Shown here piece by piece: positions 29,953 through 48,934 of a stretch of DNA of 64,000 nt. The notes below the pieces were generated by a model that had not been told where the DNA came from, searched no databases, and saw nothing but the letters and a program-made list of their open reading frames with translations. The stretch is from Thermoplasmata archaeon (GTDB taxonomy: Archaea; Thermoplasmatota; Thermoplasmata; Lutacidiplasmatales; UBA184): the NCBI GenBank assembly GCA_028864975.1, contig JAGWLG010000015.1:1-64000 (forward strand). Reading direction: 5' to 3'. The position numbers and the translations under genes are program-made. Positions within the stretch are counted from its first letter, which is position 1. Every line of letters starts with the position of its first letter.

Positions 29953-30054
29953 GCCTCGCGTGGGGACCCCCCCGGGATAATCCGGGAGGTTCACCGGTGC
30001 ACCTCGCGACGCTTATGGCCGAGGCCCGGTCCCCGTCCTCGGAGTCGGGAACGC

Positions 30055-32409: not shown

Positions 32410-32832
32410 CTATGCGAGCGCGATGTCGAGCCGGTCGAGCAACGCCCGGACGTGCTCCGGACCGATCGGTTTCCGCAGGTAGGCCTCCACCCGAAGCCCC
32501 TGAGCATTGAGCTCCTCGAGCTCGGGAAGCGAGCCGGTCAGGACCACGACGGGCAGACTCGAGGTCTTCGGGCGCGAGCGGATCTCCCCCAGGAAGTCGA
32601 CGCCCGACATGCCGGGCAGGTGCAGGTCAAGGAACACGATATCGGGCAGGTTGTCTTCAGAGGAGGTGCTCCAGCGCTGCAGCAGCTCCAGAGCGGCCTC
32701 GCCCGAGGTCGCGGTCATACTGGAGACGTCCAGCCCGGACCGCTGGAACACCTCCTGCATGTAGCGAGCGTCTCCGGGGTTGTCCTCGACGAGCAGGACG
32801 TGGAGCTTCCGGGTCGATCCTAAGGTGGCCAT
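32410..32832 (-). CDS. Single-domain response regulator (receiver)
   Basis: LLVEDNPGD, VFLDLHLPGMSG, VVLTGS, LRKP. Confidence 0.92.
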   Translation of the reverse strand: MATLGSTRKLHVLLVEDNPGDARYMQEVFQRSGLDVSSMTATSGEAALELLQRWSTSSEDNLPDIVFLDLHLPGMSGVDFLGEIRSRPKTSSLPVVVLTGSLPELEELNAQGLRVEAYLRKPIGPEHVRALLDRLDIALA

Positions 32833-32983
32833 GTGCGACGAGTGACGGGGGCAAGCCGTCTAAGGAGTCCATGGAGGAGGGGATATAGGGGAGGCCCGTA
32901 TCCATGCGTATAGCTGACCGCCCGGCGCCGACCCCGGACTCCCGCCTACAAGCCTGAAATACGGTCGGAGGCTGGAGCCTTCG

Positions 32984-33052
32984 ATGACCATTCCGAGCGG
33001 AACAGCCAAGGCTGCGCGCGCGGGCGGTCGGTATTTCTGGTCCTGGTGGTGA
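32984..33052 (+). CDS. Putative attenuation leader peptide MTIPSGTAKAARAGGRYFWSWW (22 aa; below ORF-track cutoff)
   Basis: ATG 32984 preceded by GGAGG (32967-71) and GGAG (32974-77); codons TAT TTC TGG TCC TGG TGG TGA at 33032-33052; 107 nt upstream of the aro/trp operon. Confidence 0.85.
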   Translation: MTIPSGTAKAARAGGRYFWSWW

Positions 33053-33159
33053 GCGGAGGCGCCGAACCGGCCTCCTCCTCAGCGTCCACCAAGACTTGAT
33101 GAGCAGGACGGTCCGGTACCTCCCTCGCCTCTCCGGGAACGGAAGGAGAGAAGGAACGG
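33023..33159 (+). promoter_or_regulatory. Putative attenuator RNA with alternative helices; one helix covers the SD of the first operon gene
   Basis: 33044-60 pairs with 33070-91 or with 33119-29; 33129-34 CTCTCC pairs with GGAGAG 33145-50; no U-tract. Confidence 0.62.
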
Positions 33160-33918
33160 ATGAACGGCAAGGAGCTGCGCCTGCGTCGACTCTTCCCTAG
33201 CCCACGGGCCCGACTCTTTGCGGTCCCCTTGGACCACAGCTTGTCGGTCGGACCCATCGAGGGGCTCCGCCAGTTGGAGCCTACGGCGCGATCGCTCCAG
33301 GAGGGCGGCGTGCGCTGCCTCATCGTTCACAAGGGGGGGGTTCGGACCATCGCCGCCTCGCTCATGCCCTCCACCCTCTTGGGGGTCCACCTCTCCGCCT
33401 CGACCTCCCTGGCCCAGGATACGGGGCGGAAGCGGATCGCAGGGACGGTCGCGGAAGCGGTCCGACTCGGCGCGGACCTGGTGAGCGTTCAGGTCAACTT
33501 TGGGGACCCGGCAGAGGGCGAGATGCTGGAGGACCTCGGGCACATGGCCGAGGAGTGCGAGGCGCTGGGGATGCCGCTCCTCTGCATGACCTACGTCAGA
33601 TCGAAGGGCAAGGAGATCGAAGAGGCGGCGCTCGCCCACGCGTGCCGGGCCGCCGCGGACCTGGGGGCCGACGTCATCAAGACCAACTTCCCGAGCTCCC
33701 ACGGGTTCCGCAGGCTCGTAGAGAGTACCCCCGTGCCCGTCCTCGTGGGGGGGGGGCCGAAGCTCGACCGGGAGGAGGACCTCCTCCAACTCGTCCGAGA
33801 CGCGACCGAAGCGGGTGCGCGAGGCATCTGCATCGGGAGGAACCTGTTCCAATCGTCGGACATTGTCGCGACCGCTCGCAAGGTCGCTTCGACGCTCGAC
33901 GGGGTCGCCAAGGGCTGA
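33160..33918 (+). CDS. aroA': 2-amino-3,7-dideoxy-D-threo-hept-6-ulosonate (ADH) synthase, class I aldolase (MJ0400-like)
   Basis: VPLDHS, AVRLGADLVSVQVNFG, GMPLLCMTY, ADLGADVIKT (Schiff-base Lys), GRNLFQ; first gene of an aro cluster. Confidence 0.87.
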   Translation: MNGKELRLRRLFPSPRARLFAVPLDHSLSVGPIEGLRQLEPTARSLQEGGVRCLIVHKGGVRTIAASLMPSTLLGVHLSASTSLAQDTGRKRIAGTVAEAVRLGADLVSVQVNFGDPAEGEMLEDLGHMAEECEALGMPLLCMTYVRSKGKEIEEAALAHACRAAADLGADVIKTNFPSSHGFRRLVESTPVPVLVGGGPKLDREEDLLQLVRDATEAGARGICIGRNLFQSSDIVATARKVASTLDGVAKG

Positions 33919-33929
33919 GGGAGCAACGC

Positions 33930-34964
33930 ATGGACCGACAGAGGATCGTCCTGGAGCTCGAGGCGGGCGAGGCCGGCGAACGGCTTCGTGGGTACGCCGA
34001 ACGACGCGGGTTCCACCGGTTCCTCCTTGCGGTCGGCGCAGCGAAGTCCACCCTGGTCGGACGTGAGGTCGTCCTGCGCAAAGGGACCGCTCTTCGATTC
34101 CCCGGTGGGGGAGGGGAAGGCGAGGTGCTCCGGGTGGCCCGCCCTGCGGACCTCGAAGGGGTGCTTCGGGCGCTTCAGGCCCGGCCCCTGGTCCTGGTCG
34201 AATTCGATCGCGAGCGGGTCATCCCTCTGGAGAATCTCATCGCCATGCGGCAGACCGCGGGGGAACACGCTCCGGGGGCCCTTTGGGTCCGCGCCCAACG
34301 TGCCGAGGAAGTGCCGGGCCTCCTAGGTGCCCTGGAGCATGGTTCGGACGGAGCGGTCGTGGCCGTCTCGGTGACGGAAGAGATCGACCGGCTCGAGGCC
34401 CACATCGATCGCCCCCGACTCGAGCTCTCCTGGAAGATCGCCCAGGTCGCACGCGTGACGCCCGGGGGGATCGGGGAGCGCGTGGTGGTCGACACGACCA
34501 GTCTGCTTGCCGAGGACGAGGGGATGCTCGTGGGGAGCCAGGGTGCGTTCCTCCTCCTGGTGGCTTCCGAGGCGCAAGGGTCGCGCTACACGAGACCCCG
34601 ACCGTTCCGCGTCAACGCGGGAGCGGTGCACTCCTACACGCTGCTCGCCGATGGAACGACCCGCTACCTTAGCGAACTGGAGGCCGGGGACCGCGTGGTC
34701 GTGGCCCGGCCCCGAGGAGACGCGAGGAGCGTCCGCGTCGGTCGGCTCAAGATCGAGCGTCGCCCCTTCACCCTGGTCGAGGTCAAGGTGGGCGCCCGTC
34801 GCTACACCCTCTTCCTCCAGGAGGCGGAGACGGTGCGCCTGACCACGCCCAAGGGTCCCAAGCCCGTCCCGGAGCTCTCGATACGCGACCGCTTGCTGGG
34901 GGTCGAACTTCCCGCCGCACGCCACTTTGGCATGGCCGTGCACGAGACGATCCTGGAGCGCTAG
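33930..34964 (+). CDS. aroB': 3-dehydroquinate synthase type II (MJ1249-like)
   Basis: GERVVVDT, EGMLVGS, RPFRVNAGAVHSY, YLSEL, VGRLKIERRP, RHFG; true start ATG 33930. Confidence 0.95.
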   Translation: MDRQRIVLELEAGEAGERLRGYAERRGFHRFLLAVGAAKSTLVGREVVLRKGTALRFPGGGGEGEVLRVARPADLEGVLRALQARPLVLVEFDRERVIPLENLIAMRQTAGEHAPGALWVRAQRAEEVPGLLGALEHGSDGAVVAVSVTEEIDRLEAHIDRPRLELSWKIAQVARVTPGGIGERVVVDTTSLLAEDEGMLVGSQGAFLLLVASEAQGSRYTRPRPFRVNAGAVHSYTLLADGTTRYLSELEAGDRVVVARPRGDARSVRVGRLKIERRPFTLVEVKVGARRYTLFLQEAETVRLTTPKGPKPVPELSIRDRLLGVELPAARHFGMAVHETILER

Positions 34965-34967
34965 GAG

Positions 34968-36560
34968 ATGGGAGCGCGGGACCACGCGATCGACCCCGAG
35001 GTCCTCGCCCCCCGGCCCGGACATCCGCTCCTCGTGGCGACCCTCCCTGGCCGGAAGGCGGAGGACCTTCGAACCGAAGTGCAGCAAGCTGCCGAGGCTG
35101 GCGCCGACCTGGTCGAGTTCCGCCTGGATCGGTTGTCGCGGGGAGAGGTGGGGAGGCTCGAGAGGGTGCATGAGCTGCCGCTCCTGCACCCTTGGGTCCC
35201 CGCGATCGCCACGCTGCGCTCGAAGGCCGAAGGGGGAGAAGGCCCGGACGACCTCCCCTCGCGCCGTAAGCTCGTCCTGGAGGCCCTCGACTCGCTTCCG
35301 TTCAGTTTCGTCGACCTCGAGGTCGCGCGCGATCTGCCGATGCGGGAGGAGCTCCGGAGCGCGGAAGGCCGCCGGCTCGGGGTCGTGGGCTCGGCCCACC
35401 TGCCCGCCGGGACCCCTACGGAGAAGGCGGTCCGGACCCTTCGTGCGGCGATGCAGGGGAACGAGGTGGCCAAGGTCGTTCTCCCGGCTCCCGCGGGCCA
35501 GGTGGTCCGAGAGATCCTCCCGGCCCTGGAAAGTTTCCGAGGCTCTCCCTATGTTTGTCACACGACCGGGGGTGCCGGGTCGCTGCTCCGTGTCCTCGCG
35601 CCACGCCTCGGGATGGCCTGGGTCTACTGCCGCCTACCGGGCGACCGCGGGGTGGCGGAGGTCGAACGCTCTCAGGTCCCCCTCGATCGGATGCGGCGCT
35701 TCATCAACTCCGGTCCGGAGGCCCCCTGGATGGCGGTCGTCGGGAACCCTATCGGCCACACTCTCTCCCCCGACCTTCAGGCCTCCTTCCTGAAAGCGAC
35801 CCATACCGAGGGCATCTACGTCGCGCTCGAGCTCACGTCCGAGGAGGAGTTCATGACCGTCCTCCCGGCCCTCCGACGCTACGGGCTGCGGGGGGTGAAC
35901 GCGACCCGTCCGTTCAAGCGGGCCGCGTATCAGCTAGCCAAGGTCCGTAGCGAACACGCCAGCGCTAGCGCGGCGGTGAACACGCTCGTCGCGGACCCTG
36001 CCGATCCTACGGGGTTCCGTGGGCACAACACGGACGTCTCCGCCCTGCTTCGCTGGTGGGGAGAGCTCGAGAAGGCGGGGACCCCGCTGGACCGGGTCCT
36101 GGTGGTGGGGACCGGGGGGGCCGCGCGCGCGGCGGTGCTCGCGAGCGTCCTTCACGGAGCCCAGGTCTTCGTCCTGGGCCGCCGCCCCGAGCGGGTCCAG
36201 GAGCTGGTCCATGACTTCCCTCCCGAGACGGTGCACGCGATCCCGCCGGGGTCCCTGCGAGAGTTCCCGCTCGTCGTCCACGCCACCCCCGTGGGCCAGG
36301 AGGGGGAGGAAGGGGGGGTCCTCGAGGTCCCCCTACAACGTGCTCTCGGAAGCGGAAGCCTCTTGGTCGACCTCGTGTACCGCCCTCGAGCGTCCACCGT
36401 GCAAGACCTGGTGAAGGCCCCTGGCGCCCGCTACGTCGACGGGATGCGGATGCTCGTTTACCAGGCTGCCGAAACCTTCCGTCTTTTCACCGGGACCCAG
36501 GTCCCCGACCGTCTGGTCGAGGAGTGGGTAGCCCCCGCTGCCGAGGGGGTGGCGGCATGA
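34968..36560 (+). CDS. aroDE: Bifunctional type I 3-dehydroquinate dehydratase / shikimate dehydrogenase
   Basis: N: GADLVEFRLD, ATLRSKAEGG, SAH, VAKV. C: GNPIGHTLSP, AVNT, GHNTD, GTGGAARA, DLVYRP, DGMRMLVYQA. Confidence 0.92.
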   Translation: MGARDHAIDPEVLAPRPGHPLLVATLPGRKAEDLRTEVQQAAEAGADLVEFRLDRLSRGEVGRLERVHELPLLHPWVPAIATLRSKAEGGEGPDDLPSRRKLVLEALDSLPFSFVDLEVARDLPMREELRSAEGRRLGVVGSAHLPAGTPTEKAVRTLRAAMQGNEVAKVVLPAPAGQVVREILPALESFRGSPYVCHTTGGAGSLLRVLAPRLGMAWVYCRLPGDRGVAEVERSQVPLDRMRRFINSGPEAPWMAVVGNPIGHTLSPDLQASFLKATHTEGIYVALELTSEEEFMTVLPALRRYGLRGVNATRPFKRAAYQLAKVRSEHASASAAVNTLVADPADPTGFRGHNTDVSALLRWWGELEKAGTPLDRVLVVGTGGAARAAVLASVLHGAQVFVLGRRPERVQELVHDFPPETVHAIPPGSLREFPLVVHATPVGQEGEEGGVLEVPLQRALGSGSLLVDLVYRPRASTVQDLVKAPGARYVDGMRMLVYQAAETFRLFTGTQVPDRLVEEWVAPAAEGVAA

Positions 36561-37453
36561 GCGCCGCAGGTCCGGTGACGATGGGGCCGACGCTTCGTGA
36601 CGGCGCCTGGGGCGCCATCTCCTTCCTGAACGCGATCCCCCAGGGGATCGGCTGTGCCGCCGCGATCTCCCTTCCCGTCACGGTCGAGGTCCAGTACGTC
36701 CCGGCTCCGCCGCAGAGCAAGCCCTGGCTCGACACCACCGAGGGGGAGGCGACCCCGCTCCTGCGCTGGACCCTGGACAAGGTCTACGAGAGCGTTCCCG
36801 TCCCTCCCATCTACAAGTTCCATGTGGCGGTGAGGTCGGGGGTTCCCCCCCAAAAGGGCCTCAAGAGCTCCTCGGCGGTCTCCGTCGCCCTCGCGCGGGC
36901 GCTGCGTCGGGTCCTAGGCCAGAGCCCGACCCCTGCGGAAGTCGCCACGCTCTCCGCCAAGGCGGCCCTGGCGGCGGGGGTCTCGGTCACCGGCGCCTTC
37001 GACGACGCGCTCGCGTGCGCCATGGGCGGCGTGGTGGTCGCTGACGTCCGGGCGCACTGGCAGATGCTCTCCACCGAGGTCCCTTCGGGACTTCAGGCCC
37101 TCCTCTGGATACCGGAGACCACCCGCCCCGACCTTGCGAAGCGGAGCTCCGAGCTGAGGGCGCCCGACATGAACGCCAAGGAGGCGGTCCGCCTCGCGCT
37201 CCGGGGCGACTATCTCAAGGCGATGAAGTACAACTCGCTCGTCGTGGAGCGGGCGTTGGGTTACGATTACGCCAAGTTACGCGAGGCCGGGCTCACCAAG
37301 GGAGCGCTGTCGGCCGGGGTCACCGGGAACGGTCCGGCGGTGGCCTTCGTCTGCCCCCGGGAGCTGACCCCGCAGGTGGCCTCCGCCCTACCATGGCAGG
37401 GCGCGAAGCTGCTCACGGCGGAGTTCGTGCGCCCCGGGGTGGTGCCCGCGTGA
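36557..37453 (+). CDS. aroK: Archaeal shikimate kinase (GHMP family)
   Basis: GAISFLNAI..GIG, PPQKGLKSSSA, SVTGAFDD, AGVTGNGPA; ATG 36557 (ATGA overlap). Confidence 0.93.
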   Translation: MSAAGPVTMGPTLRDGAWGAISFLNAIPQGIGCAAAISLPVTVEVQYVPAPPQSKPWLDTTEGEATPLLRWTLDKVYESVPVPPIYKFHVAVRSGVPPQKGLKSSSAVSVALARALRRVLGQSPTPAEVATLSAKAALAAGVSVTGAFDDALACAMGGVVVADVRAHWQMLSTEVPSGLQALLWIPETTRPDLAKRSSELRAPDMNAKEAVRLALRGDYLKAMKYNSLVVERALGYDYAKLREAGLTKGALSAGVTGNGPAVAFVCPRELTPQVASALPWQGAKLLTAEFVRPGVVPA

Positions 37454-38904
37454 TGGTGCCTGCCGAACGTCAACGACCCGCAAGGACCGCCACTTCGCCG
37501 GACCCCGAAGCGGCTCTTCTCAGGTTGAATGAGGGTGCGGGCCTGCCGCCGCTTCCAGGACGGGTCGTGGTCACCCCGGGCACCGCCCGCGGGACGCTGA
37601 CCGCTCCACCTTCCAAGAGCTACACCCACCGCGCGCTCGTCGTCGCCGCGCTCGCCGAGGGACCCACGAGGGTGATCGGGGGGCTCCGGAGCGAGGACAC
37701 GCTGGCCAGCCTTCGGGCGGTCATCAGGTTGGGTGGGCAGCTGCGGGCAGCCCCCCCTGAGGCGCCTCCGGGAGGGGAAAGCGTCCTTCCTCCGCTCGCG
37801 CTCGACCCTCTCCCCCTGGGCCCGAGTCATGGAGGGGTGGCGGAGATCGACACCGCCGAGTCCGGGACCACCCTGCGGCTCTTTAGCGCCGTCGCCGCGC
37901 TCCTCCCTCGTACCTCCCGCTTCTCCGGGAGTCCTTCTCTCGCCCGGCGCCCTCTGGGTGGGCTCCTCCAAGCCCTTGCTTGTCTGGGGGCCAGCTTCGA
38001 TGGCCCTCCTCCAGGTCGGTCCCTACCCTTCTCGGTCCGCGGGCCGCTCCACGGGGGGAGCGTCTCGGTCTCCGGGAGCGAAAGTAGCCAGTTCACTTCC
38101 GCGCTGCTCATCGCGCTCCCTTGCCTTGCGGAGGGCTCCGAGCTCCAGGTCGCAGGTGCGAGGGTGAGCCTTCCGTACGTGGAGGCAACGCTCGAGGTCC
38201 TGCGACAGCAAGGAGTGCACATCGAGAGCGCGCCCTCCAACCGCTACGTCATCCCGGGCGGTCAGCGCTACCGGGGAGGCCACCTCACGGTCACGGGCGA
38301 CGCCTCCTCCGCCGCGTACTTCCTCGCCTTGGGCGCCATCCAAGGTGGGCCCATCACGGTCAAAGGGGTTGACCTGCACGTCCCGCAGGCCGACCTGGCC
38401 CTGCTCCCTGTGCTCGAACGTGCAGGGGCACGCGTCCGTCGCGGCGAACGGGAGCTCACCGTGGAGCGCCGCGGGGGAAGGCTCTCGCCCTTCGAGGTCG
38501 ACCTGACGGCCTCGCCCGATCTTGCCCCCCTTCTGGCCGTCGTGGCCGCCTTCGCCCAGGGGCGATCAAAGCTGCTCGGGGCTTCCCATCTCGAGGCCAA
38601 GGAGAGCGACCGTCGACAGGGCTCCTTGAGGCTGGCCCAGGCGCTGGGCGCGAGCGCACGAGCGACCGAGGAAGGTATCGAGGTCGAGGGCCCCGTTCAG
38701 GTGTGCTCGCTGGACCTGAGGGACCTCTCGGACCACCGGATGTTCATGAGCGCCGCGGTCGCCGCTGCCGCCCTCAAGGAGCCCTCGACGCTCGAAGACC
38801 CCCGGGTGGTGCGCAAGTCCTACCCGGGTTTCCTGGAGGACCTGGGGAGCCTGGGGATACAGGTCGAAGGCGCTCGGGGGGGAGCTCCTGGGAGGTCGAC
38901 ATGA
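37450..38904 (+). CDS. aroA: EPSP synthase
   Basis: PPSKSYTHR, ESGTTLR, SSQFTSALL, GDASSAAYF, KESDR, DHRM, KSYPGF; GTG 37450 or ATG 37453. Confidence 0.95.
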   Translation: MMVPAERQRPARTATSPDPEAALLRLNEGAGLPPLPGRVVVTPGTARGTLTAPPSKSYTHRALVVAALAEGPTRVIGGLRSEDTLASLRAVIRLGGQLRAAPPEAPPGGESVLPPLALDPLPLGPSHGGVAEIDTAESGTTLRLFSAVAALLPRTSRFSGSPSLARRPLGGLLQALACLGASFDGPPPGRSLPFSVRGPLHGGSVSVSGSESSQFTSALLIALPCLAEGSELQVAGARVSLPYVEATLEVLRQQGVHIESAPSNRYVIPGGQRYRGGHLTVTGDASSAAYFLALGAIQGGPITVKGVDLHVPQADLALLPVLERAGARVRRGERELTVERRGGRLSPFEVDLTASPDLAPLLAVVAAFAQGRSKLLGASHLEAKESDRRQGSLRLAQALGASARATEEGIEVEGPVQVCSLDLRDLSDHRMFMSAAVAAAALKEPSTLEDPRVVRKSYPGFLEDLGSLGIQVEGARGGAPGRST

Positions 38905-39989
38905 GGATGGCGATCGGGGAAGCGCTCCGTCTCACCCTCTTTGGCTCAAGCCACGGTCCCGTCGTGGGTGCCGTGCTCGAGGGTCTCCCCGCGGGGACCC
39001 CTGTCGACCTTGAGGCGGTCCAGCGCGAGCTGGACCGTAGGCGCCCCATCGGTCGCGCGCTCGCGACCAAGCGGCGGGAAGAGGACCAGCTCCGAGTGGA
39101 ATCCGGGCTCGTCAACGGACGCACCACGGGAGACCCGCTCGTCGGGGTGGTCGAGAACCGGGACGTCCGGCGAGGGCCATACCGAGAGCTCGAGGACGTC
39201 CCTCGACCCGGGCATGCGGACTTCCCCGCGAGGATGCGATACGGCGAGGCCTTCGACCTTTCCGGAGGGGGGATCTTCTCCGGCCGGATGACCGTGGGGC
39301 TGGTCTTTGGAGGGGCGGTCGCCCGAGGCCTCCTCTCCCCTCAGGGGATCGATGTGCTCGCCTTCACCCGCTCCTTGGGAGGGGTCGACGCCTCGGCGGC
39401 CTCGCTCGAGCGACGGCTCCCTGAGCTTCGTGCCGACGTGCTGTCGCACGAGGTGGGGTGCCCGGACCTGTCCGCGTCCAAGCGGATGTCGGAGGCGATC
39501 GAGCGCGCACGGAAGGACGGCGACAGCGTCGGGGGTGTCATCGAGGTGCGGGCTGAGGGGCTGCCCGTCGGGGTGGGCGAGCCGTTCTTCGACTCGGTCG
39601 AGAGCACCCTCGCCCATGCGCTCTTCTCGGTCCCGGCGGTCAAGGGGGTCGAGTTCGGCGCGGGATTCACGGCCGCAAGGATGCGCGGGAGCGAGCACAA
39701 CGACCCGTTCTTCGTGGAGGACGGACGGGTCCGTAGCCGCACCAACCACGCCGGAGGCATCCTGGGGGGGCTCACCACGGGAATGCCCCTGGTGGCGCGG
39801 GTCGTGGTCAAGCCCACCTCCTCGATCGCCAAGGAGCAGGAGTCCGTCTCGCTGAGCACGAAGTCCTCACGTAGGCTTGTGGTCAAGGGGCGGCACGACC
39901 CATGTATCGTCCCGCGTGCGGTCCCCGTGGTGGAGAACCTCACCGCGTTCGTGCTGGCGGACCTGATGGCCCGCGGGGGGTTCCTGTGA
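38901..39989 (+). CDS. aroC: Chorismate synthase
   Basis: FGSSHG, PRPGHAD, GGGIFSGR, KDGDSVGG, VPAVKGVEFG, NHAGGILGG, KPTSSI, GRHDPC. Confidence 0.96.
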   Translation: MRMAIGEALRLTLFGSSHGPVVGAVLEGLPAGTPVDLEAVQRELDRRRPIGRALATKRREEDQLRVESGLVNGRTTGDPLVGVVENRDVRRGPYRELEDVPRPGHADFPARMRYGEAFDLSGGGIFSGRMTVGLVFGGAVARGLLSPQGIDVLAFTRSLGGVDASAASLERRLPELRADVLSHEVGCPDLSASKRMSEAIERARKDGDSVGGVIEVRAEGLPVGVGEPFFDSVESTLAHALFSVPAVKGVEFGAGFTAARMRGSEHNDPFFVEDGRVRSRTNHAGGILGGLTTGMPLVARVVVKPTSSIAKEQESVSLSTKSSRRLVVKGRHDPCIVPRAVPVVENLTAFVLADLMARGGFL

Positions 39990-41074
39990 GCGAAGCGCGC
40001 CGGAGGACGGTGCTCCTGGGCGCGAGCGGCTGGATCGGGCAGCACTTCGCGCGGTTGTTGGACGACCATCCGTACTTCGACTCCCCGATCCTGACCGGGG
40101 CGACGAGCGCGGGGAAGAGCCTGGGCGAGCTCTGGCAGCTGGCGGACCAGCCCGTGCCCCAGGGGCTCGCAGAATCGAAGATCGAGAGGTTGACCCCTGC
40201 GGAGATCGCGCGGAGGGGGGTCGAGGTCGCCTTCAGCGCCCTTCCTTCGGGGGAGGCCGGAGCCTTCGAGGCCGAGCTCGCCCGCCGGGGGGTCGCCGTC
40301 TTCTCCAACGCTTCCGCGCATCGGATGGACCCCCAGGTCCCCTTGGTCATCCCCGAGATCAACGGGGACCATCTCGACGCCATCGAACGGCAGCCGTGGG
40401 AAGGCAGCATCGTCACGAACTCGAACTGTTCTACGGCAGGCCTCGTGCTGGCCCTCGCTCCCCTGGTGCCCTTGCTCCGGCCCAAGGAGGTCTTCGTGGC
40501 GACCTACCAGGCCCTCTCCGGGGCAGGCTACCCTGGGGTCCCCTCCCTGTCGATCGAGGACAACGTCCTTCCGTTCATCGCGGAGGAGGAGGAGAAGATG
40601 GAGCGTGAGACCGCGAAGATCCTGGGGGGCTTTCGGGGCGGACGTTTCCGTCCCCTCTCGCTTCCCGTGAGCGCGCACTGCGCTCGCGTAGGCTCCCGGG
40701 AGGGCCACCTCGAGGCCGTGACCCTCAAGGCCGGGACCCCTGCCAAGGCCTCGGAGATCGTTCGGGCTTGGGAGGACTTCCAACCCCTCTCCCCTCGAGC
40801 GCGTGGCGACCGTGAAACGCTCCCGACCGCCCCTGATCACCCCGTGGTCTACCGGCGGGAGGTGGACCGTCCTCAGCCCATCCGCGACCGTTGGGCCGGG
40901 ACCCCCGCGCGCGCACGGGGCATGGCCGTGAGCGTCGGCCGCCTCCGGGTCGACCGTGAGCATGTCCGGTTCTTCACGCTCTCGCACAACGCGGTCCGAG
41001 GGGGAGCTGGTGGGAGCGTGCTCAATGCCGAGCTCGCCCTTCGGAAGGGGCTTCTCGGAGGGCGACGGAGATGA
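39986..41074 (+). CDS. asd: Aspartate-semialdehyde dehydrogenase (archaeal type)
   Basis: GASGWIGQ, FSALPS, SNASAHRM, VTNSNCST (catalytic Cys), YQALSGAGY, HNAVRGGAGG; GTGA overlap. Confidence 0.95.
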   Translation: MSEARRRTVLLGASGWIGQHFARLLDDHPYFDSPILTGATSAGKSLGELWQLADQPVPQGLAESKIERLTPAEIARRGVEVAFSALPSGEAGAFEAELARRGVAVFSNASAHRMDPQVPLVIPEINGDHLDAIERQPWEGSIVTNSNCSTAGLVLALAPLVPLLRPKEVFVATYQALSGAGYPGVPSLSIEDNVLPFIAEEEEKMERETAKILGGFRGGRFRPLSLPVSAHCARVGSREGHLEAVTLKAGTPAKASEIVRAWEDFQPLSPRARGDRETLPTAPDHPVVYRREVDRPQPIRDRWAGTPARARGMAVSVGRLRVDREHVRFFTLSHNAVRGGAGGSVLNAELALRKGLLGGRRR

Positions 41075-42456
41075 CCACGGAAGCGCTTTGCGTCGTCAAG
41101 TACGGAGGGGCCGCCCTCGGTTCGGAGGAGAGCCTCCGGGACGTGATCCGTGAACTGCGAGCTCGCAAAGGCCCCATCGTAACGGTCGTTTCCGCACGGG
41201 AAGGGGTCACGGACCTGCTCAAGGCGGCGACCGCCGACCCCGCGAGCCGCGCTCGGCACGAAGAGGTCCTTCGCAAGCTCACCGCGCTCCATGCGGGGGG
41301 ACCCCGAGAGGTTACGCTCGCGCTGCGCGCGCTCGAACGGCAGCTCACCCGTCTGCGGAGCGCGATGCGTCAGCTGCCTCCCAGGGCCCGCCGCTACCCC
41401 TCCACCCGCGCGCCGGTCGTCCTTTCGGACGCTATCCTCGCGCAGGGAGAGCGCCTGGCGGCGCATTGGTTCGCCGACCGTCTCCGACATGGGCGGGTAG
41501 CGGCACGGGCCTTGGAAGCGGACCTGATCGGGCTCTCGACGGACGACCACCACGGCGAGGCGATCGTCCTGCTCGACCGGTCGGAGCTCCCGGTCCGCCG
41601 CGCCGTGACGCCCCTGCTGAGGCGGGGCCAGGTGCCGGTGGTCACCGGGTTCCTGGGCCGATCTCCCTCCGGGAAGGTCGCGACGCTCGGCCGAGGAGGG
41701 TCGGACTACTCGGCGACGTGCCTCGGGTACCTTCTCGGGGCCTCCCGCGTGGAGCTGGTCAAGAAGGACGTCTCGATCCTTACAGCGGACCCCCGCATCG
41801 TCCCGGCCGCCCGGCCTCTCTCGCGCCTCTCCTACGAGGAGGCGGAGGAGCTGGCGCAGTTTGGCGCCAAGGTCCTCCACCCGCTCACCGTCGAGCCCGC
41901 CCGCGCGCGTGGCGTCGAGGTCGTGATCCGCTCCCTCGAGGACCCGACCAGGACCACGACCATCGGACCCGCCCTTCCGGGGGAAGGCATCCGGGCCTTG
42001 ACGCTCCTTTCGCCCACGGCGATGCTCCTGCTCCGCGTTCCGGGGGGGCGCCAGCGGAGGGGGGTGATCGCCGAGGTGAGCCGCACGCTCGCCGCGGCGG
42101 AGGTGAACGTCATCACGATGTTCACCTCCTCGGCCCTCCTGATCGTGCTCGTTGAGATGGCCTCGGGCCGCAAGGCCCGCAGGGCCTTGGACCCGTTCGC
42201 TCGGGGGGACGGGGCCTCGCTGGAAGGGCCGCTGGAGGCCGCCCTGGTGACCGCGATCGGGGAGGGGGTGCTCGCGGACCTCGGAGGGCTTCCGGGGGAC
42301 GTGGCCTCCCGGGCGCTCGGGGTCTCGGCGACCTCCCGGACCCTCTCCTTCGCCGTGCCCATGGCCTCGGGTCGCGAATCGCTCGTGAGCCTCCACCGTG
42401 CCCTGGTCGAGCTTCCCCGAGCGGTCACGCTCGAGGGCACCGTCCGGGGCACCTGA
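41071..42456 (+). CDS. lysC: Aspartate kinase with ACT domains
   Basis: VKYGG, VVSA..GVTD, GER, TLGRGGSDYSA, TADPRIV, LSYEEA.ELA.FGAKVLHP. Confidence 0.92.
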   Translation: MTTEALCVVKYGGAALGSEESLRDVIRELRARKGPIVTVVSAREGVTDLLKAATADPASRARHEEVLRKLTALHAGGPREVTLALRALERQLTRLRSAMRQLPPRARRYPSTRAPVVLSDAILAQGERLAAHWFADRLRHGRVAARALEADLIGLSTDDHHGEAIVLLDRSELPVRRAVTPLLRRGQVPVVTGFLGRSPSGKVATLGRGGSDYSATCLGYLLGASRVELVKKDVSILTADPRIVPAARPLSRLSYEEAEELAQFGAKVLHPLTVEPARARGVEVVIRSLEDPTRTTTIGPALPGEGIRALTLLSPTAMLLLRVPGGRQRRGVIAEVSRTLAAAEVNVITMFTSSALLIVLVEMASGRKARRALDPFARGDGASLEGPLEAALVTAIGEGVLADLGGLPGDVASRALGVSATSRTLSFAVPMASGRESLVSLHRALVELPRAVTLEGTVRGT

Positions 42457-42471
42457 AAGGGGGAGCATGCG

Positions 42472-43758
42472 ATGCCGGCACCCACCCCCCGAGCCGGCCC
42501 CCACCGCGACCCGTGGTGGAACTTCGTTCGTCGGAGCGCGGAGGACCCCGCGAGCGCCTTCTACTTCGAGCGGGGGGCCTCCCCCGGTCGGAGCGGACGC
42601 TACTCGTTCTTCGGGTTCGGCCCGTCCGAGCGAGAGGAATGGTCCGAACCTCGGGACGTGTCGGCCTCGCGCCTCCGCGTCCGGGGGAACGACCCACATC
42701 GCGCGGACGGAAGCTGGGTCGGGTTCGTCGGGTTCGACGCCGTAGGGCTTTTCGAACCTCTGCTCGGGCCCTCGACCCCCCGAGGCTCACCCTTCCCGGT
42801 CGCCCTGTTCGACCGGTACCCGCATGTCGAGCACGCCCACCATCTTGGGGCCCCCGAAAGGGGGGCCGCGCCCGGTCTTCCCCCGAGCCCCGAAGTTGGT
42901 GAGGTCGAGGACTCCACAACGCGCGACCGCTTCGAGCGCTCGGTGGAGCATCTCCGCGAGGCGATCTACGACGGCGAGGCCTTCCAGGTCGTCCTCGCGC
43001 ACCGGCGGTCCCGGCGCTTCAGGGGGAGCCTGCTCCCGGTGGTCGACCGCCTGCGTCGCGAGGAGCACTTCGCCTTCCTGTACTATCTCCGCATCGTGGA
43101 CGGGACCTCGGCAGGAGGAACGCCCATCGAGATCGCGGGGGCGTCGCCCGAGTCCGTAGTCGAGATCCGGGACGGGACGGTCGCGGTCAACCCGATCGCC
43201 GGGACCCGCCCCCTCCCCGCCCCCACGCGGGGACCCGCGGCCCGCCTTCCGTTGGACAAGGACCCCAAGGAGCTCGCGGAGCACCGGATGCTCGTCGATC
43301 TCGCCCGCAACGATATCGGACGGGTCTCCCAGGTGGGGAGCGTCCACCTCTCTCGACGTGAGACCCGCGTGCCTTACGCACGTCTGGAGCACCTCGTCAG
43401 CCGGGTCGTCGGCCGTCTGAGCAACGGCGCGAGCGCGATCGACGCGCTGGTCGCGACCTTCCCGGCGGGGACGGTGAGCGGGGCGCCCAAGATCCGTGCC
43501 ACCGAGCTTTTGCGCAGGGAGGAGCGGTCCTGGCGCGGGACGTACGGGGGGACGGTCGGGATCGTGACCCCCGGCGGGGAGGCCGATTTCGCGCTCGCGA
43601 TCCGCTCGGCCGCCGCGGCCCGGGGCCGGGTCTACACGCAGGCCGGAGCGGGGATCGTCCACCTCTCGAAACCCGCCCAGGAATGGGAGGAGACCCTCGC
43701 CAAGCTGGCGACCGTCGAGCGGGCCCTCGAGGGAAAGATACGGAGGGTCCGGCGTTGA
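42472..43758 (+). CDS. trpE: Anthranilate synthase component I
   Basis: GEAFQVVL, GASPE, PIAGTR, DPKELAEHRMLVDLARND, FPAGTVSGAPKIRA, AIR, QAGAGIV. Confidence 0.93.
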   Translation: MPAPTPRAGPHRDPWWNFVRRSAEDPASAFYFERGASPGRSGRYSFFGFGPSEREEWSEPRDVSASRLRVRGNDPHRADGSWVGFVGFDAVGLFEPLLGPSTPRGSPFPVALFDRYPHVEHAHHLGAPERGAAPGLPPSPEVGEVEDSTTRDRFERSVEHLREAIYDGEAFQVVLAHRRSRRFRGSLLPVVDRLRREEHFAFLYYLRIVDGTSAGGTPIEIAGASPESVVEIRDGTVAVNPIAGTRPLPAPTRGPAARLPLDKDPKELAEHRMLVDLARNDIGRVSQVGSVHLSRRETRVPYARLEHLVSRVVGRLSNGASAIDALVATFPAGTVSGAPKIRATELLRREERSWRGTYGGTVGIVTPGGEADFALAIRSAAAARGRVYTQAGAGIVHLSKPAQEWEETLAKLATVERALEGKIRRVRR

Positions 43759-44342
43759 AGCTCGTGCTCATCGACCATCAGGATTCCTTCGTCTACAACC
43801 TCGCCCAGGCCCTCGGTCGGCTTGGGGCCGAGGTCGTCACGCTGCGCTCGAGCCTTCCGCTGCGAGCGGTCCTGCGCGAGGACCCGGACCTCCTCGTCCT
43901 CTCCCCGGGGCCGGGCCATCCTTCGGACCCCCGAACGATGGGAGTGACCCCTCGACTGCTTTCCCGGGGAGGGCTGGCGCGCGAGCTCCCCACGCTGGGG
44001 GTCTGTCTGGGACACCAGGCGATCGGTGCGGCGTTCGGAGGGACGGTGCACCGAGGCCCCTACCCCTGCCACGGAGAGACCTCGCGGGTCCTGCATCACC
44101 GAGAAGGGCTCTACGAAGGGGTCCCCAGCCCCTTCTCGGCGGCCCGGTACCACTCTCTGGTCGTGGACCGCCACGACCTCCCCGCCGAGCTCGAGGAAAC
44201 GAGCTGGGAGGCGGGTGGAGTACTGATGGGCCTGCGCCACCGGACGCTTCCCATCGAGGGCGTTCAGTTCCACCCCGAGTCCTATCTTACGCGGTACGGC
44301 GATAGGCTCCTCGGGAACTTCCTGAAGAGGGCCCGCCGATGA
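43755..44342 (+). CDS. trpG: Anthranilate synthase component II (glutamine amidotransferase)
   Basis: IDHQDSF, SPGPG, GVCLGHQ, RYHSL, QFHPES; TTG 43755 (TTGA overlap). Confidence 0.95.
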   Translation: MKLVLIDHQDSFVYNLAQALGRLGAEVVTLRSSLPLRAVLREDPDLLVLSPGPGHPSDPRTMGVTPRLLSRGGLARELPTLGVCLGHQAIGAAFGGTVHRGPYPCHGETSRVLHHREGLYEGVPSPFSAARYHSLVVDRHDLPAELEETSWEAGGVLMGLRHRTLPIEGVQFHPESYLTRYGDRLLGNFLKRARR

Positions 44343-45412
44343 ACGTGGATCCCTCGACAGGACCCGCGGCCTTGCAGCACCTGGTCCAGGGGGAGGACCT
44401 CGGACCTGAGGAGGCCCGAGAGGTCGCCGAGGGTCTGTTGACGGGGGCCTTCCCCCCGGAGGTCGTGGCGTCCCTCCTCACGGCCCTGGCTGCGAAAGGA
44501 GAGAGCCCGGAGGAGCTCTACGCCTTCTCCTCGACCCTGCGGGCGCGAGCTCGACCCTTCCCGGGACCCGCGGAGGCCGGGGCCGTGGACCTGTGCGGGA
44601 CGGGGGGGGCGAAGACGCCGACGTTCAACATCTCGACGGTCAGCGCCTTCGTCCTCGCGGGGGCGGGCGTCCCGGTCGCCAAACATGGGAACGTCTCCGC
44701 CCGAAGGCCGTGCGGGTCCTCGGACGTACTGAGCGCCCTAGGGCTTCCGGTCCTTCGCTCCGTGGCCTTCGCCGAGGCCTCCTGGAGGAAGGAACGGCTC
44801 TGCTTCCTCCATGCTCCGCTCTTCCATGCCGCGACCCGGAGCGTGGCGCCGGTCCGCAAGGCGCTTGGGCTCCGGACCATCTTCAATCAGCTGGGGCCTC
44901 TCACGAACCCTGCAGGGGTCTCGACGCAGCTCGTAGGGTGTTTCTCGAGGGAGTATGCCCGGCGGGTCACCCCCGTGCTCCACCGGTTGGGCGTGCACCG
45001 GTCCCTCGCGGTCCACGGGAAGGGAGGGATGGACGAGCTCAGCTCCAAGGGGACGGACTGGCTCCTCCGATCGGTCGAAGCGAGCGGTGAGGGCGGGGGC
45101 GCGACCGAGGTCTCGATCGACCCTTCCACGCTCCTGTCGCCCGAGGAGCGCCGTGGCGACCTTCGTCCCCGGTCGCCTGGGGAGGCGGCCGAGCTCACGC
45201 GGGCGGTCCTCTCGGGAGAAGGGGACGGAGCGGTCCGCGGGGCCGTCCTGCTGACCGCAGGGGCCGCGATATGGCTTCACGGCTCCGCCCCCGAGCTGCC
45301 GAGTGGCGTGGCGTTGGCGAGGTCGGCCCTTCAGGACGGCCGGGCGCTCGACAAGCTCCAGAAGCTCCAAGCGCTCGCCCGCTCCCAGGACTGGCCGGAG
45401 GGGTCCCCTTGA
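44339..45412 (+). CDS. trpD: Anthranilate phosphoribosyltransferase
   Basis: DLCGTGG, FNIST, KHGN, GSSD, RTIFNQLGPL.NP, GMDE. Confidence 0.96.
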   Translation: MNVDPSTGPAALQHLVQGEDLGPEEAREVAEGLLTGAFPPEVVASLLTALAAKGESPEELYAFSSTLRARARPFPGPAEAGAVDLCGTGGAKTPTFNISTVSAFVLAGAGVPVAKHGNVSARRPCGSSDVLSALGLPVLRSVAFAEASWRKERLCFLHAPLFHAATRSVAPVRKALGLRTIFNQLGPLTNPAGVSTQLVGCFSREYARRVTPVLHRLGVHRSLAVHGKGGMDELSSKGTDWLLRSVEASGEGGGATEVSIDPSTLLSPEERRGDLRPRSPGEAAELTRAVLSGEGDGAVRGAVLLTAGAAIWLHGSAPELPSGVALARSALQDGRALDKLQKLQALARSQDWPEGSP

Positions 45413-46287
45413 GCCCACGGTCTCCCACGAACCCGGCACGGGCCGACGCGAAGTCCGCTCCAGGGAACTTCCTGGACACCATGGTGAAGACGGTGGAGGA
45501 GGAACTGCGCGCGGGGCTCTACGCACGGCGCCCACCCCGAGGGGACGAGCCCCCGCCGGGACGTCCCCGGTTCGCGGAGGCCCTTCATCGGGTCTCGGAG
45601 GGGCCGGCCTTGATGGTGGAGCTCAAGCATGCCTCCCCCGGGCGCTCGCAGCCGCGGCTTCCTGCGCTCTCTCCGGAGCGTTTCGTTCGGGTGTGCGAGG
45701 ACGCGGGGATCAGCGCGCTCTCGGTGATCCCTCAGCCCTACGAGTTCGGAGGCAACCTGGAGGAGTTCGGGAAGGTCGCCCACCTATCCCGTCTGCCGCT
45801 CCTTTTCAAGGACTTCATCATCGATGAGGCCCAGATCCAGGCCGCGAAAGTGCACGGAGCTTCGGCGGTCCTGCTCCTCGCCCGGCTCGCGCGCGCCCAG
45901 TCCCTGCACGGCAACCTGGAAGGGCTGGTGAAGGCGGCCCATGCTCGAGGGCTGGAGACCCTGGTGGAAGTGCATGCGAAGGCCGAGGTACCCCTAGCGC
46001 TCAGCTCCGGGACGGACGCCCTTGGGGTCAACGCCCGAGACCTCGGAACGCTCCACCTGGACCCTCGCTCCGCGCTGCCGGTGCTGCGCGAGCTGCGCAA
46101 GGACCCCCGGCCGCTCGTGGCCATGAGCGGCGTGGAAGGACCGCGCGAGGTGGCCCTCTACGGCGCCTCGGGGGCCGACGCGATCCTCATCGGGACGGCC
46201 TTCGCGCGTTCCCACGACCCGCTCGCGTTCCTGCGGGGCCTGCGTGCGGAGCCCCCCCGCAACGAGGCCGCGGTGGGGGACCGTTGA
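45409..46287 (+). CDS. trpC: Indole-3-glycerol-phosphate synthase
   Basis: ELKHASP, FGG..E, LFKDFIID..QI, LVEVH, GVNARDL, MSG, LIG; TTG 45409 (alternative ATG 45481). Confidence 0.93.
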   Translation: MSPRSPTNPARADAKSAPGNFLDTMVKTVEEELRAGLYARRPPRGDEPPPGRPRFAEALHRVSEGPALMVELKHASPGRSQPRLPALSPERFVRVCEDAGISALSVIPQPYEFGGNLEEFGKVAHLSRLPLLFKDFIIDEAQIQAAKVHGASAVLLLARLARAQSLHGNLEGLVKAAHARGLETLVEVHAKAEVPLALSSGTDALGVNARDLGTLHLDPRSALPVLRELRKDPRPLVAMSGVEGPREVALYGASGADAILIGTAFARSHDPLAFLRGLRAEPPRNEAAVGDR

Positions 46288-46967
46288 CCCGATCGCAGGA
46301 CCGACCGCTGGTGAAGGTCTGTGGTCTCCGGACCTCACGAGACCTCGAGGCCGCGGAAGGAGCGGACCTCATTGGGGTCGTGGTGGAGGTGCCGGGGTCT
46401 CCCCGATCGGTATCGCTCAGAGAAGCGGAGGCCCTCTTCGAGCTCGCCCGAGGACGCTTCGATCGCGTGGCCGTCATGTGGGGCCCAGATGCAACTCGGA
46501 TCCGGGAGGTCCTTCGTGTAGCGGCCCCCGACCTCGTACAGGTGCACGGACCAGTCCCGACGGGGTTGAAGGAGGAAGAAGTGGGCAAGGTGGTCCCCTC
46601 CCTAGCGGTCCCGCAGGCCACCCCTCGGGACGCCCCTGCACCGGTGAAGGTGCCCGATGAGGGGGGGTACCCCTTCCTCCATCTGGACACCGCGGGAGGA
46701 CCGCTACCTGGGGGGACGGGACAGCGTTCCGATTGGTCCCTTTGCAGAGATCTCGTGGTCTCGCACCCTACGCAACGGTTTCTTCTGGGCGGTGGTCTCA
46801 CACCTGAGAACGTGGCGGAAGCGATCGAGCGGGTCCAGCCGCATGGCGTCGACGTCTCGAGCGGGGTCGAGGAGCGACCCGGGGTGAAGTCCCGCGAGAA
46901 GGTCGAGCGATTCCTTCGGGCCTCCCTTTCGGCCACGAAGCGTGGTAGGAGCGCGCGCGATGCCTGA
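46284..46967 (+). CDS. trpF: Phosphoribosylanthranilate isomerase
   Basis: [37 protein letters not shown]. Confidence 0.94.
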
Positions 46968-48129
46968 GTGGTACGGCCCCTTCGGAGGTACGTTCGTTCC
47001 GGAGACCCTCGTCCCCGCGCTGCAGGAGCTTGAGTCCGCCTGGCGCTCGGCGAGGAAGGACCCGGCCTTCAAGAGGGAGTTCCAGCGCCTGGCACGGGAG
47101 TGGGGAGGACGGCCGACCCCCCTCTACTTTGCCGAGAACCTGACCCGGGAGGTCGGTGGCGCGCAGATCTACCTCAAACGAGAGGACCTCGTCCACGGTG
47201 GAGCGCACAAGTTCAACAACGCCTTGGGGCAGGGGCTGCTGGCGAAGCGCCTCGGGAAGACCCGACTGATCGCCGAAACGGGCGCGGGACAGCACGGCGT
47301 CGCCACGGCCATGGTCGGAGCCAAGCTCGCGCTCCGGACCGAGGTGTACATGGGGGCCGTCGACATGGAACGCCAGAAGCCCAACGTCCAGCGCATGCGG
47401 CTCCTGGGCGCCACGGTTCGGCCCGTCGACCACGGGGGGAAGACGCTCAAGGAAGCGATCAACGAGGCGTTCCGGGATTGGATCACGAACGTCCAGTCCA
47501 CCTACTACCTGCTCGGGAGCGCGGTGGGTCCTCATCCGTTCCCTTCGATCGTGTGCGAGTTCCAGTCCGTGATCGGACGGGAGATCTTGCAGCAGGCGCG
47601 AAGCGCGTGGAAGGCGCTACCGGACCTGGTCGTCGCCTGCGTGGGCGGAGGCTCCAACGCCATCGGGACCTTCCACCCGCTGCTCAAGACCCCGGCGAAG
47701 CTTCTCGGGGTGGAGGCGGCGGGTTCGGGAGCCCCCCAAGCGGTCGGGTCCGCCTCCCTCACCAAGGGGCGGCCGGGGGTCCTGCAAGGGATGCGGACCT
47801 ACCTGCTCCAGGACGCGGAAGGCCAGATCCTGGAGACCGATTCCATCGCCGCGGGTCTCGACTACGCCGGCGTGGGGCCGGAGCACGCGTACCTGAAAGA
47901 GACGGGCCGGGTGGAGTACACGTCGGCGACCGACACGCAGGCGCTCGAGGCGTTCCATCGCCTGGCGAGGACGGAGGGCATCCTTCCGGCCCTCGAGCCT
48001 TCTCATGCCCTTGCCGAAGCGATCCGACGCGCCGCGACCATGCCGAAAGAGGCACGTATCGTGGTGACCCTCTCGGGGAGGGGCGACAAGGATCTGGAGG
48101 TGGTCGGCCAGCATGCCTCACCTGGGTGA
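46960..48129 (+). CDS. trpB: Tryptophan synthase beta chain (TrpB1 type)
   Basis: YG.FGG.FVPE, LKREDL.H.GAHKFNN (PLP Lys), [35 protein letters not shown]. Confidence 0.97.
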
Positions 48130-48934
48130 GGTCCTAGCGTCCCGCCGGGCCGAGAGGACGCCCTCGCTCTTGGTCTACATGATGGCGGGGTCGGTCCCGG
48201 ACGAGCGTTTCCTCGCCACCGTCGACGCGCTCAAGGGCGTCGGGGTCACGGGTCTCGAGCTAGGTTTCCCCTTCAGCGACCCCATGGCCGAAGGTCCGGT
48301 GATCCAGAAGGCGGCCTCCGATGCTCTCGCTCGTGGTTTCCACTGGCCGGACCTGCTCCGTCTGCTTCGTTCCTGCTCGGAGAAGCTCCCGTGTGCGGTC
48401 ATGACCTACACGAACCCTATCGTCCAGCGAGGAGAGCTCTCCGCGCTGCAGGACCTCGCGAGCGCCGGAGGGAGCGCGCTGATCCTTCCGGACCTCCCCG
48501 TCGAGGCGCTGGCTCCCTTCCGAAGGGCCCGCCAGACCACACGCGTGGACACGGTCCTGCTAGCGTCGCCGGCGACTCAGGCAGAAAGATTGCGGACCCT
48601 TGTCGTTCGGACCGAGGGGTTCCTCTACCTGGTCTCCCGCTACGGCACCACGGGCGCAGGGGGAGGGAACACTCCCTCGACCCAGGGTCGGGAGGGGGAG
48701 CTCCGCCCGCTCCTCGATGCGTCCCACGCCCTACGCCCGAAGCTCCCCGTTCTCGTCGGGTTCGGGGTCTCCACTCCCGAAGATGTCCGTCGACACCTCT
48801 CGGCGGGGGCCGACGGCGTTGTCGTGGGAAGCGCGGTCCAGCGGCGTTTGAGCGAAGGAGAGAGCCCGCAGGGCATCGCGGGATATGTGAGAGGCCTCTG
48901 CGATGGGCTCACATCCAAGGGCCCGTCCGCCTGA
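48113..48934 (+). CDS. trpA: Tryptophan synthase alpha chain
   Basis: [50 protein letters not shown]. Confidence 0.96.

Follow-up and report, generated by a model that had tools for sequence, protein, structure and literature searches.

A candidate tryptophan-sensing leader peptide upstream of the aro-trp operon in archaea of the order Lutacidiplasmatales

The aro-trp locus

The stretch of DNA studied here, which we call the window, comprises 64,000 nucleotides (contig JAGWLG010000015.1, positions 1 to 64,000) from a Thermoplasmata archaeon of the order Lutacidiplasmatales, whose archaeal genome measures 3.61 Mb in 124 contigs with 67% GC. It carries an operon for aromatic amino acid synthesis, and our subject is a short upstream open reading frame (uORF) that precedes the first gene of this operon, aroA', and ends in tryptophan codons. 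A first interpretation made from the letters of the window (the sequence-only reading) had announced a 15-gene aromatic operon, and NCBIfam scans agree: 15 co-oriented genes extend to position 48934 and encode ADH synthase (aroA'), dehydroquinate synthase II, a fused aroD-aroE, an archaeal shikimate kinase, EPSP synthase and chorismate synthase, followed by aspartate-semialdehyde dehydrogenase, aspartate kinase and trpE-G-D-C-F-B-A. Several of the junctions overlap by 4 nt. The intergenic region is bounded at 32832 by a divergent response-regulator gene.

The same reading had also pointed to a 22-codon frame with an aromatic-rich end 107 nt before aroA', and this description is confirmed by the list of open reading frames (ORFs) in the window and by the letters: the frame MTIPSGTAKAARAGGRYFWSWW, closed by a TGA stop, lies at 32984-33052 on the forward strand, with aromatic residues at five of its last six positions and at none of the first 16, and 107 nt separate the end of its stop codon from the aroA' ATG at 33160. 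Three of the last four codons are Trp codons (relatives carry two or three), and TGG makes up 1.7% of codons genome-wide. The main features are as follows.

32984..33052, forward strand: leader uORF of 22 codons, probably leaderless, recognised through its conserved orthologues
33038..33052, forward strand: putative sensor codons TGG TCC TGG TGG and the TGA stop (W19, S20, W21, W22, stop), read from the letters
33141..33162, forward strand: purine-rich Shine-Dalgarno (SD) region (GGAAGGAGAGAAGGAA) and ATG of aroA', read from the letters
33160..48934, forward strand: operon aroA', aroB', aroD-E, aroK, aroA, aroC, asd, ask, trpE, G, D, C, F, B, A, from NCBIfam scans

Such an ending is rare in this genome. 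When all six frames of the 3.61 Mb are considered, W-x-W-stop or x-W-W-stop occurs at 176 sites only, 15 of which terminate a short ATG ORF (15-40 codons), and about 7e-4 such ORFs would be expected by chance in the 327-nt intergenic strand. The other 14 ORFs of this kind in the genome show neither a promoter-like box nor a trailing hairpin nor a meaningful downstream gene. A scan of the same genome for a short ATG ORF placed behind an A/T box and before a long GC3-rich ORF returned only the aroA' uORF, and a second leader scan gave 80 candidates, none with a run of any single amino acid. Matches to the covariance model described below are weak elsewhere in this genome (E values of at least 0.003).

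Conservation and distribution of the leader

The distribution given here rests on searches for AroA' in the genomes of relatives, the DNA upstream of each hit then being read. The presence of comparable uORFs at orthologous loci was the test that the sequence-only reading had set for itself, and they precede aroA' in 81 of the 100 assessable genomes of the family, by which we mean the relatives of Thermoplasmata archaeon UBA184 in the order Lutacidiplasmatales. Leaders occur in five genera (15 of 24 genomes in a first batch and 66 of 76 in a second), at 91-115 nt from aroA', and at least three named metagenome-assembled genomes carry one, that of Thermoplasmata archaeon UBA184 among them; the unpublished genomes G171-G173 are counted in the tallies only and no claim is based on them. 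In the first batch, within which AroA' identity is 54-78%, the 15 genomes have an ATG ORF of 21-23 codons located 94-115 nt before aroA' and ending in WW, WWW or W-x-W followed by TGA. The 76 assessable loci of the second batch yielded 63 clear cases and three variants, two having lost the first Trp codon and one starting with GTG; among the 63 loci, the uORF has 23 codons in 47, 22 in seven and 24 in six, and the length differences preserve the reading frame.

The bodies of these peptides are unrelated between relatives (positions 2-15 are variable), save for a weak G-R-x-A pattern; a role for the uORF as a functional small protein was considered and rejected on account of this variability. 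Their ends tell another story. Trp is the last sense codon of all 78 leaders and stands at -3 in 76 of them; every one of the 78 stops with TGA (the choice of 62% of genes genome-wide), and a Leu between the Trp codons is encoded by CUC in 63 of 63 cases, against a usage of 54%. Relatives in the same genus as the window end in ...GPWW and ...GSWWW, and in other genera the ending is W-[LSAG]-W. Even same-genus relatives lack the Tyr and Phe of the window peptide, so that the earlier proposal of a ribosome-mediated attenuator sensing mainly Trp, together with Phe and Tyr, stands as regards a conserved leader made of end-product codons and fails for Phe and Tyr, the Trp codons alone being conserved.

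Some side observations concern the same positions. The nucleotide invariance at 33035-33054 of the window and at the equivalent positions of the 78 leaders goes beyond coding (the UGA stop, the CUC middle codon), and the codon ahead of the first Trp is always NCC, though the amino acid that it encodes varies. In the two leaders that lost the first Trp codon (L117 in G164, L177 in G067) it has become GGG, leaving a single Trp codon in a leader that is otherwise intact, and such natural variants could reveal the number of sensor codons required.

Outside the family, 77 loci of other archaea and bacteria gave no convincing leader upstream of aroA'. A covariance model run over 151 genomes of the class has its matches confined to the family, apart from two (in G277 and G254) that fall inside coding regions and were rejected for this reason. 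Two further candidates were discarded, a W-rich frame upstream of aroA' in Methanoculleus, which lies inside the preceding paralogous aldolase gene, and an unsupported frame in Methanocellales.

The leader follows the tryptophan genes

The co-occurrence of the leader with trp genes is the strongest functional evidence. TrpB is encoded in 76 of the 81 leader genomes, about 13 kb downstream and on the same strand where the contigs allow this to be seen, and the five leader genomes that miss it are 59-81% complete. Fourteen leader-less genomes of genera g5 (G007, G012, G017, G022, G043) and g4 (G050, G052, G054, G071, G074, G075, G077, G086, G153) have no TrpB at E<=1e-80 despite a completeness of 83-97%. 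These organisms are probably Trp auxotrophs, and their genomes keep aroA', placed directly after a PqqC/TenA-like gene.

Genus g3 has its trp operon on another contig. In one of its members, G010, a 23-codon uORF ending in WGW-TGA stands before trpE and not before aroA', with the same TATA spacing and the same long hairpin beginning at the stop codon plus 2 nt as in the aroA' leaders (both are described below), and folding predicts that the strand released from this hairpin can mask the trpE start region.

Locus L191, contig C4, 2882-2953: trpE leader uORF of G010, 90-99 nt before a stand-alone trpEGDCF(BA) operon

Taken together, the TrpB co-occurrence, the leader-less relatives and G010 indicate that the leader follows the trp genes and not the shikimate genes. 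The long hairpin of G010 also holds a run of five U, missing from the aroA' leaders. At three other g3 loci (L192-L194, in G005, G020 and G015) trpE comes directly after a gene for a repeated-CPxCG zinc-ribbon protein and has no leader.

A promoter ahead of the uORF

32950..32961, forward strand: promoter, with a purine-rich BRE-like (B recognition element) AAG and the TATA box TGAAATA (32955-32961), from conserved A/T positions

The centre of an archaeal TATA box lies about 26-27 nt before the transcription start. That of the window ends 22 nt before the uORF ATG, which puts its centre at about -27 counted from 32984. Essentially all loci have an A/T island (consensus cTAAATAg) at -30 to -24 from their uORF ATG, and in 78 orthologous leaders A/T amounts to at least 95% at -29 to -25 and to 92% at -34 (a conserved A). 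The general upstream profile of the same genome shows an A/T bump near -28 to -30. Since a conserved TATA box is thus centred some 27 nt before its ATG, the uORF is probably leaderless, with a transcript that probably starts at or next to this ATG. About 70% of Haloferax transcripts are leaderless (PMC7261190). The sequence-only reading had credited the uORF with an SD of its own; GGAGG is indeed present at 32968-32972 but has no counterpart in any relative, and the TATA box predicts instead a start at the ATG. A sigma-70 promoter scan gave nothing relevant.

A further A/T position 11 nt before the uORF ATG (about 32973 in the window) is common to 82% of the 78 leaders; it stands in an otherwise G+C-rich spacer between TATA box and start, and may be a promoter-proximal element.

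Two alternative folds of the leader RNA

33050..33081, forward strand: local hairpin ("protector"), the stop codon and GGAGGC pairing with GCCUCC..CUCA, from minimum free energy folds of short transcripts
33051..33126, forward strand: long imperfect hairpin ("rod", an anti-sequestor), an SD-like 5' strand pairing with the pyrimidine strand 33093-33126, from folding and covariation
33119..33134, forward strand: pyrimidine anti-SD tract CCUCCCUCGCCUCUCC, whose partner is either the GGAGG strand of the rod or the aroA' SD, from folding

An SD-like strand, which we call B, begins 2 nt after the uORF stop (GGAGGC in the window, GGGAGGCGCC... in the largest genus), and this helix start is constant across leaders. 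Strand B may pair either with a neighbouring strand C in the local hairpin or with a distal pyrimidine strand E in the rod, where C pairs with a strand D; both structures share B and are therefore mutually exclusive. Strand E ends in CCUCCC and is complementary both to B and to the aroA' SD. In the same genome, the 16S rRNA finishes with ...GGAUCACCUCCU; its last letters are CCUCCU, and it contains the anti-SD CCUCC.

In the window, the local hairpin is the minimum free energy structure of transcripts ending 28-48 nt past the stop, at about -15 kcal/mol (the median in relatives is -21.5 kcal/mol), and when growing transcripts are folded it is predicted to come first and to be the best structure until about 60 nt past the stop, after which the rod is the best one. 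RNAalifold found next to no consensus in plain MAFFT alignments of all genera, and within one genus it recovered only the local hairpin from the alignment made by the tool and the rod from one of our own. Because of these inconsistent results, the model was built from the rod as mapped by hand and the leaders were re-aligned to it, and pairing and covariation were measured on the 79 leaders aligned in this way. In the rod, 76.3% of the cells are paired, versus 71.3% in shuffles (0 of 500 reach the observed value) and 45-64% with slid partners; its covariation score is 0.24 versus 0.17 (shuffled) and 0.08-0.12 (slid), and both sides have changed in 21 of its pairs. The corresponding figures for the local hairpin are 93.5% versus 91.1% (again 0 of 500 shuffles) and 39-58% with slid partners, with a covariation score of 0.051 versus 0.041 shuffled and three pairs that change on both sides. 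Its sequence is nearly invariant, as is expected of strands that must fit two partners.

These folds have a predicted effect on the start of aroA'. Over 78 leaders, the median probability that the SD core is unpaired was computed to be 0.59 in the unconstrained rod state, 0.18 with the local hairpin enforced, and 0.20 when the 9 nt past the stop are held single-stranded (lower in 62 and higher in 6 of the 78). Under such constraints, the predicted partner of the SD in 52 of 68 leaders is exactly the released anti-SD (median hairpin energy -10.9 kcal/mol), and the flanks of this hairpin vary by lineage and stay complementary all the same (UUCG/CGAA, CUCG/CGAG). That the RNA has two states, and that these are coupled to where the uORF ends, is well supported by these predictions. 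A shunt or re-initiation role for the rod was rejected, as the direction of regulation would be wrong.

No oligo-T tract of five or more is found past the structures in the window leader or in the consensus of 65 leaders; a terminator scan of the window leader had its sole match inside the uORF, where it is not conserved, and found nothing terminator-like past the uORF; and an Rfam scan that included Trp_leader gave three chance-level matches to unrelated families (E >= 1.7), far below the gathering scores. Terminator-type attenuation in the classical sense, which the bacterial models invoked by the sequence-only reading would suggest, is therefore not indicated.

Proposed mechanism

Starting from the conserved uORF, its spacing to the promoter, the two folds with their predicted effect on SD accessibility and the co-occurrence with trp genes, all of which were computed directly, we consider it likely, with a good deal of room for doubt, that this element is a ribosome-mediated, Trp-specific leader (attenuator) of the aro-trp operon, probably acting on the initiation of aroA' translation. 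Translational control appears more likely than terminator-type attenuation, because there is no oligo-T tract and the conserved output is the hairpin formed by the anti-SD and the SD. That the uORF is translated, that ribosomes stall on it, and in which direction and with what kinetics the switch works, we infer as follows.

Transcription would begin at the uORF ATG and a ribosome would load on the leaderless 5' end, reaching the terminal Trp codons while RNA polymerase makes the next 100 nt. With B locked in the local hairpin, E would pair with the aroA' SD and close it; with B paired to E in the rod, the SD would be open. When Trp-tRNA is plentiful, termination would be quick, the local hairpin would snap shut behind the ribosome, the anti-SD would mask the SD and the operon would be off; the same outcome would be expected without any translation. 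When Trp-tRNA is scarce, a ribosome dwelling on the last Trp codons would cover the 5' part of B with its 3' edge, some 15-16 nt past the first P-site nucleotide, and block the full local hairpin. The inner pairs of the rod, predicted for a ribosome at that position, would form meanwhile, the rod would close once the ribosome moves on, and by holding the anti-SD it would keep the SD open and the operon on. The overlapping junctions, possibly together with polarity, would carry this decision to all 15 genes. The Haloferax ribosome protects about 16 nt counted from the first P-site nucleotide (PMC7261190); with a footprint of about this size, 4-7 nt of B would be covered when the last Trp codon is in the A site, 7-10 nt when the stop codon is there, and none when the first Trp codon of a W-x-W leader occupies it.

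A number of points weigh against this scenario. All the evidence is computational and the host organisms are uncultured. The genomes are kin, so that counts and p-values overstate independence; two of them retain just one Trp codon, and in three g3 genomes the trp operon lacks a leader. As to the RNA, the alignment used to count covariation was fitted to the model, the folds are predictions in RNA of 65-70% GC, where stable folds come easily, the z-score of the whole window leader is only -2.6, and the sequestor hairpin beats composition-matched shuffles only moderately (53% of leaders have z<-1). When some other part of the rod is blocked in folding, the SD closes just as well. Moreover, folding leaves the direction of the switch unsettled: thermodynamically, a ribosome at the last Trp codon uncovers the anti-SD too, and at the window locus, an A site occupied by the first Trp codon and one occupied by the stop codon give the same predicted SD accessibility, 0.47. 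Finally, a simple stalling model does not explain why UGA and CUC never vary and why the length is fixed at 23 codons.

Alternative explanations

It is because of this last point that a reading of the TnaC kind stays alive. A termination-arrest sensor, of the type of TnaC or of the fungal arginine attenuator peptide (AAP), would be a nascent peptide of 22-23 residues, ending in W-x-W, that senses free Trp within the ribosome and slows its own release at the UGA; the arrested ribosome would hold the SD-like strand open, with the effect that the anti-SD masks the aroA' SD at high Trp. This would account for a UGA invariant in 78 of 78 leaders, a CUC invariant in 63 of 63, a length nearly invariant at 23 codons and a helix that always begins 2 nt past the stop; covering the 9 nt past the stop cuts the predicted SD accessibility from 0.57 to 0.20, and the homeostatic direction is obtained without any kinetic trap. 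On the other hand, the peptide is poorly conserved outside its Trp residues, and positions -4 to -8 vary through changes at the first codon position while the NCC-UGG nucleotides are kept, which argues for a constraint on the RNA rather than on the peptide. The invariance may be partly inherited among kin genomes, and we know of no archaeal arrest peptide. We regard this type of sensor as unlikely, though not to the point of setting it aside. Put more broadly, archaea of this family would gauge Trp with the ribosome itself and without any regulatory protein; in the furthest-reaching version, an arrest at the invariant UGG-UGA of the 23-codon leaderless peptide, dependent on free Trp or on a release factor as in TnaC, would keep the SD mimic open, and the anti-SD would shut the 15-gene operon. 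We give this a small chance as well. If true, Archaea would have a termination-arrest sensor whose output is translational, and we know of neither of these two parts in Archaea.

Somewhat more doubtful still is the idea that transcription is the main target of the leader peptide: where the ribosome stands would decide whether RNA polymerase terminates in the leader or in early aroA', for example through factor-dependent termination on untranslated RNA (FttA/aCPSF1 polarity), in which the SD-masking hairpin would be a trigger or secondary. Archaea couple transcription to translation and show polarity, one decision must reach 15 genes, and the run of five U inside the rod of the G010 trpE leader would fit such a role. 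It is harder to reconcile with this idea that neither the window leader nor the 65-leader consensus has an oligo-T of five or more, and that the conserved 3' element is the pair formed by anti-SD and SD.

An element bound by a protein, a tRNA or a ligand (riboswitch- or TRAP-like), or a DNA operator, in which the uORF would be incidental or serve for ribosome loading only, seems improbable to us. It could explain why a 21-nt stretch, GGGAGGCGCCGGGAGGGCGCC, which holds two GGCGCC palindromes, varies hardly at all among about 60 species of one genus and is more conserved than its pairing partner; this invariance is, however, also expected of a strand that has to serve two partners, Rfam gave no match, and the in-frame ATG at the predicted start, the frame-preserving lengths and the fixed distance from the Trp codons to the helix across five genera all speak against it.

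As for a chance ORF without regulatory role in a GC-rich 5' untranslated region, to which we give hardly any credence, stops are few in such DNA and base composition leaves a 22-codon frame open about 60% of the time, but the uORF is not a chance ORF, since only about 7e-4 of its kind are expected at this place and it is kept in 81 genomes and lost along with the trp genes.

Neighbouring genes

Two aspects of the surroundings deserve mention. The genes for aspartate-semialdehyde dehydrogenase and aspartate kinase (39902-42456) sit inside the operon, between aroC and trpE, and their products would feed aspartate semialdehyde to ADH synthase, the product of aroA'. Upstream, the PqqC/TenA-like gene (29773-30831, forward strand), whose C-terminus reads ...MLRGxxxHxxLVDGVL, is a conserved neighbour of the aro operon throughout the family; in the window, an OsmC-like gene, a gene for a DnaJ-domain membrane protein and a response-regulator gene are inserted between it and the leader.

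Comparison with known systems

Leader-peptide attenuation is the textbook case of regulation that depends on the coupling of transcription and translation. To our knowledge it has been treated as a bacterial invention, and characterised archaeal trp control uses repressor proteins, the known example being TrpY of Methanothermobacter, a DNA-binding repressor at the promoter. The leader described here would share with TrpY a Trp-dependent control of an archaeal trp operon and would differ from it in that TrpY is a protein acting at the promoter, whereas our element calls for no protein of this sort; both could coexist. The sequence-only reading had supposed that there is no established archaeal precedent, and we indeed found no report of leader-peptide attenuation in Archaea in the full-text literature that was searched, subscription-only papers being outside its reach.

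With trpL (Rfam RF00513, Trp_leader) and the predicted trp leaders of actinobacteria (PMC1262725), our element shares a short ORF with tandem or near-tandem Trp codons near its stop, placed before trp genes, and mutually exclusive pairings that start from the end of the ORF, the first hairpin forming if no ribosome intervenes. It differs from them in its archaeal host with a TATA/BRE promoter, in a uORF that is probably leaderless, in a last element that is a hairpin of anti-SD and SD, in Trp codons that directly precede the stop, and in an operon that adds the shikimate pathway, asd and aspartate kinase. The absence of a terminator hairpin with a U-run and of an Rfam match means that two defining features of the classical system fail here.

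The closest tested analogue in mechanism is given by the leaderless polycysteine small ORFs of mycobacteria (the Cys "ribulon"; Canestrari et al., 10.1101/834739), in which stalled ribosomes prevent the sequestration of a ribosome binding site. A sensory first cistron with clustered cognate codons, leaderless in mycobacteria and probably so here, is common to both. The mycobacterial frames are bacterial, respond to Cys and were tested experimentally, whereas the archaeal Trp leader is known here by computation alone; furthermore, what the stalled ribosome covers in mycobacteria is the pairing partner of the ribosome binding site itself, while in our case the SD-mimic strand, the local hairpin and a rod of 75 nt would intervene.

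The ermCL/ermC and cat leaders likewise expose a downstream SD by a re-pairing of complementary segments driven by the position of a ribosome, but they are bacterial, and their stalling depends on a drug and on the peptide, not on amino acid supply. TnaC of E. coli and the fungal AAP are closer in size (24-25 codons versus 23 here) and regulate at the stop of the uORF, TnaC being Trp-responsive. In these two, residues are conserved along the chain and the free amino acid is sensed, unlike our leader, in which the terminal Trp alone is conserved; TnaC, in addition, induces a catabolic operon through Rho.

Conclusion

The order to which UBA184 belongs, Lutacidiplasmatales, consists of high-GC soil archaea (PMC9287336), and a leader of the kind described here is present in some 80 genomes of these soil Thermoplasmatota. 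As it goes with the trp genes, it yields an annotation rule, and many members of the family are flagged by it as probable Trp auxotrophs. If our preferred interpretation is true, archaeal ribosomes would serve as amino acid gauges, and the leader would offer a concrete, mutable element with which coupling, leaderless initiation and SD masking may be studied in Archaea. It would also account for the way in which these organisms tune to Trp a 15-gene operon that makes the shikimate pathway, its own aspartate-semialdehyde and, finally, tryptophan.
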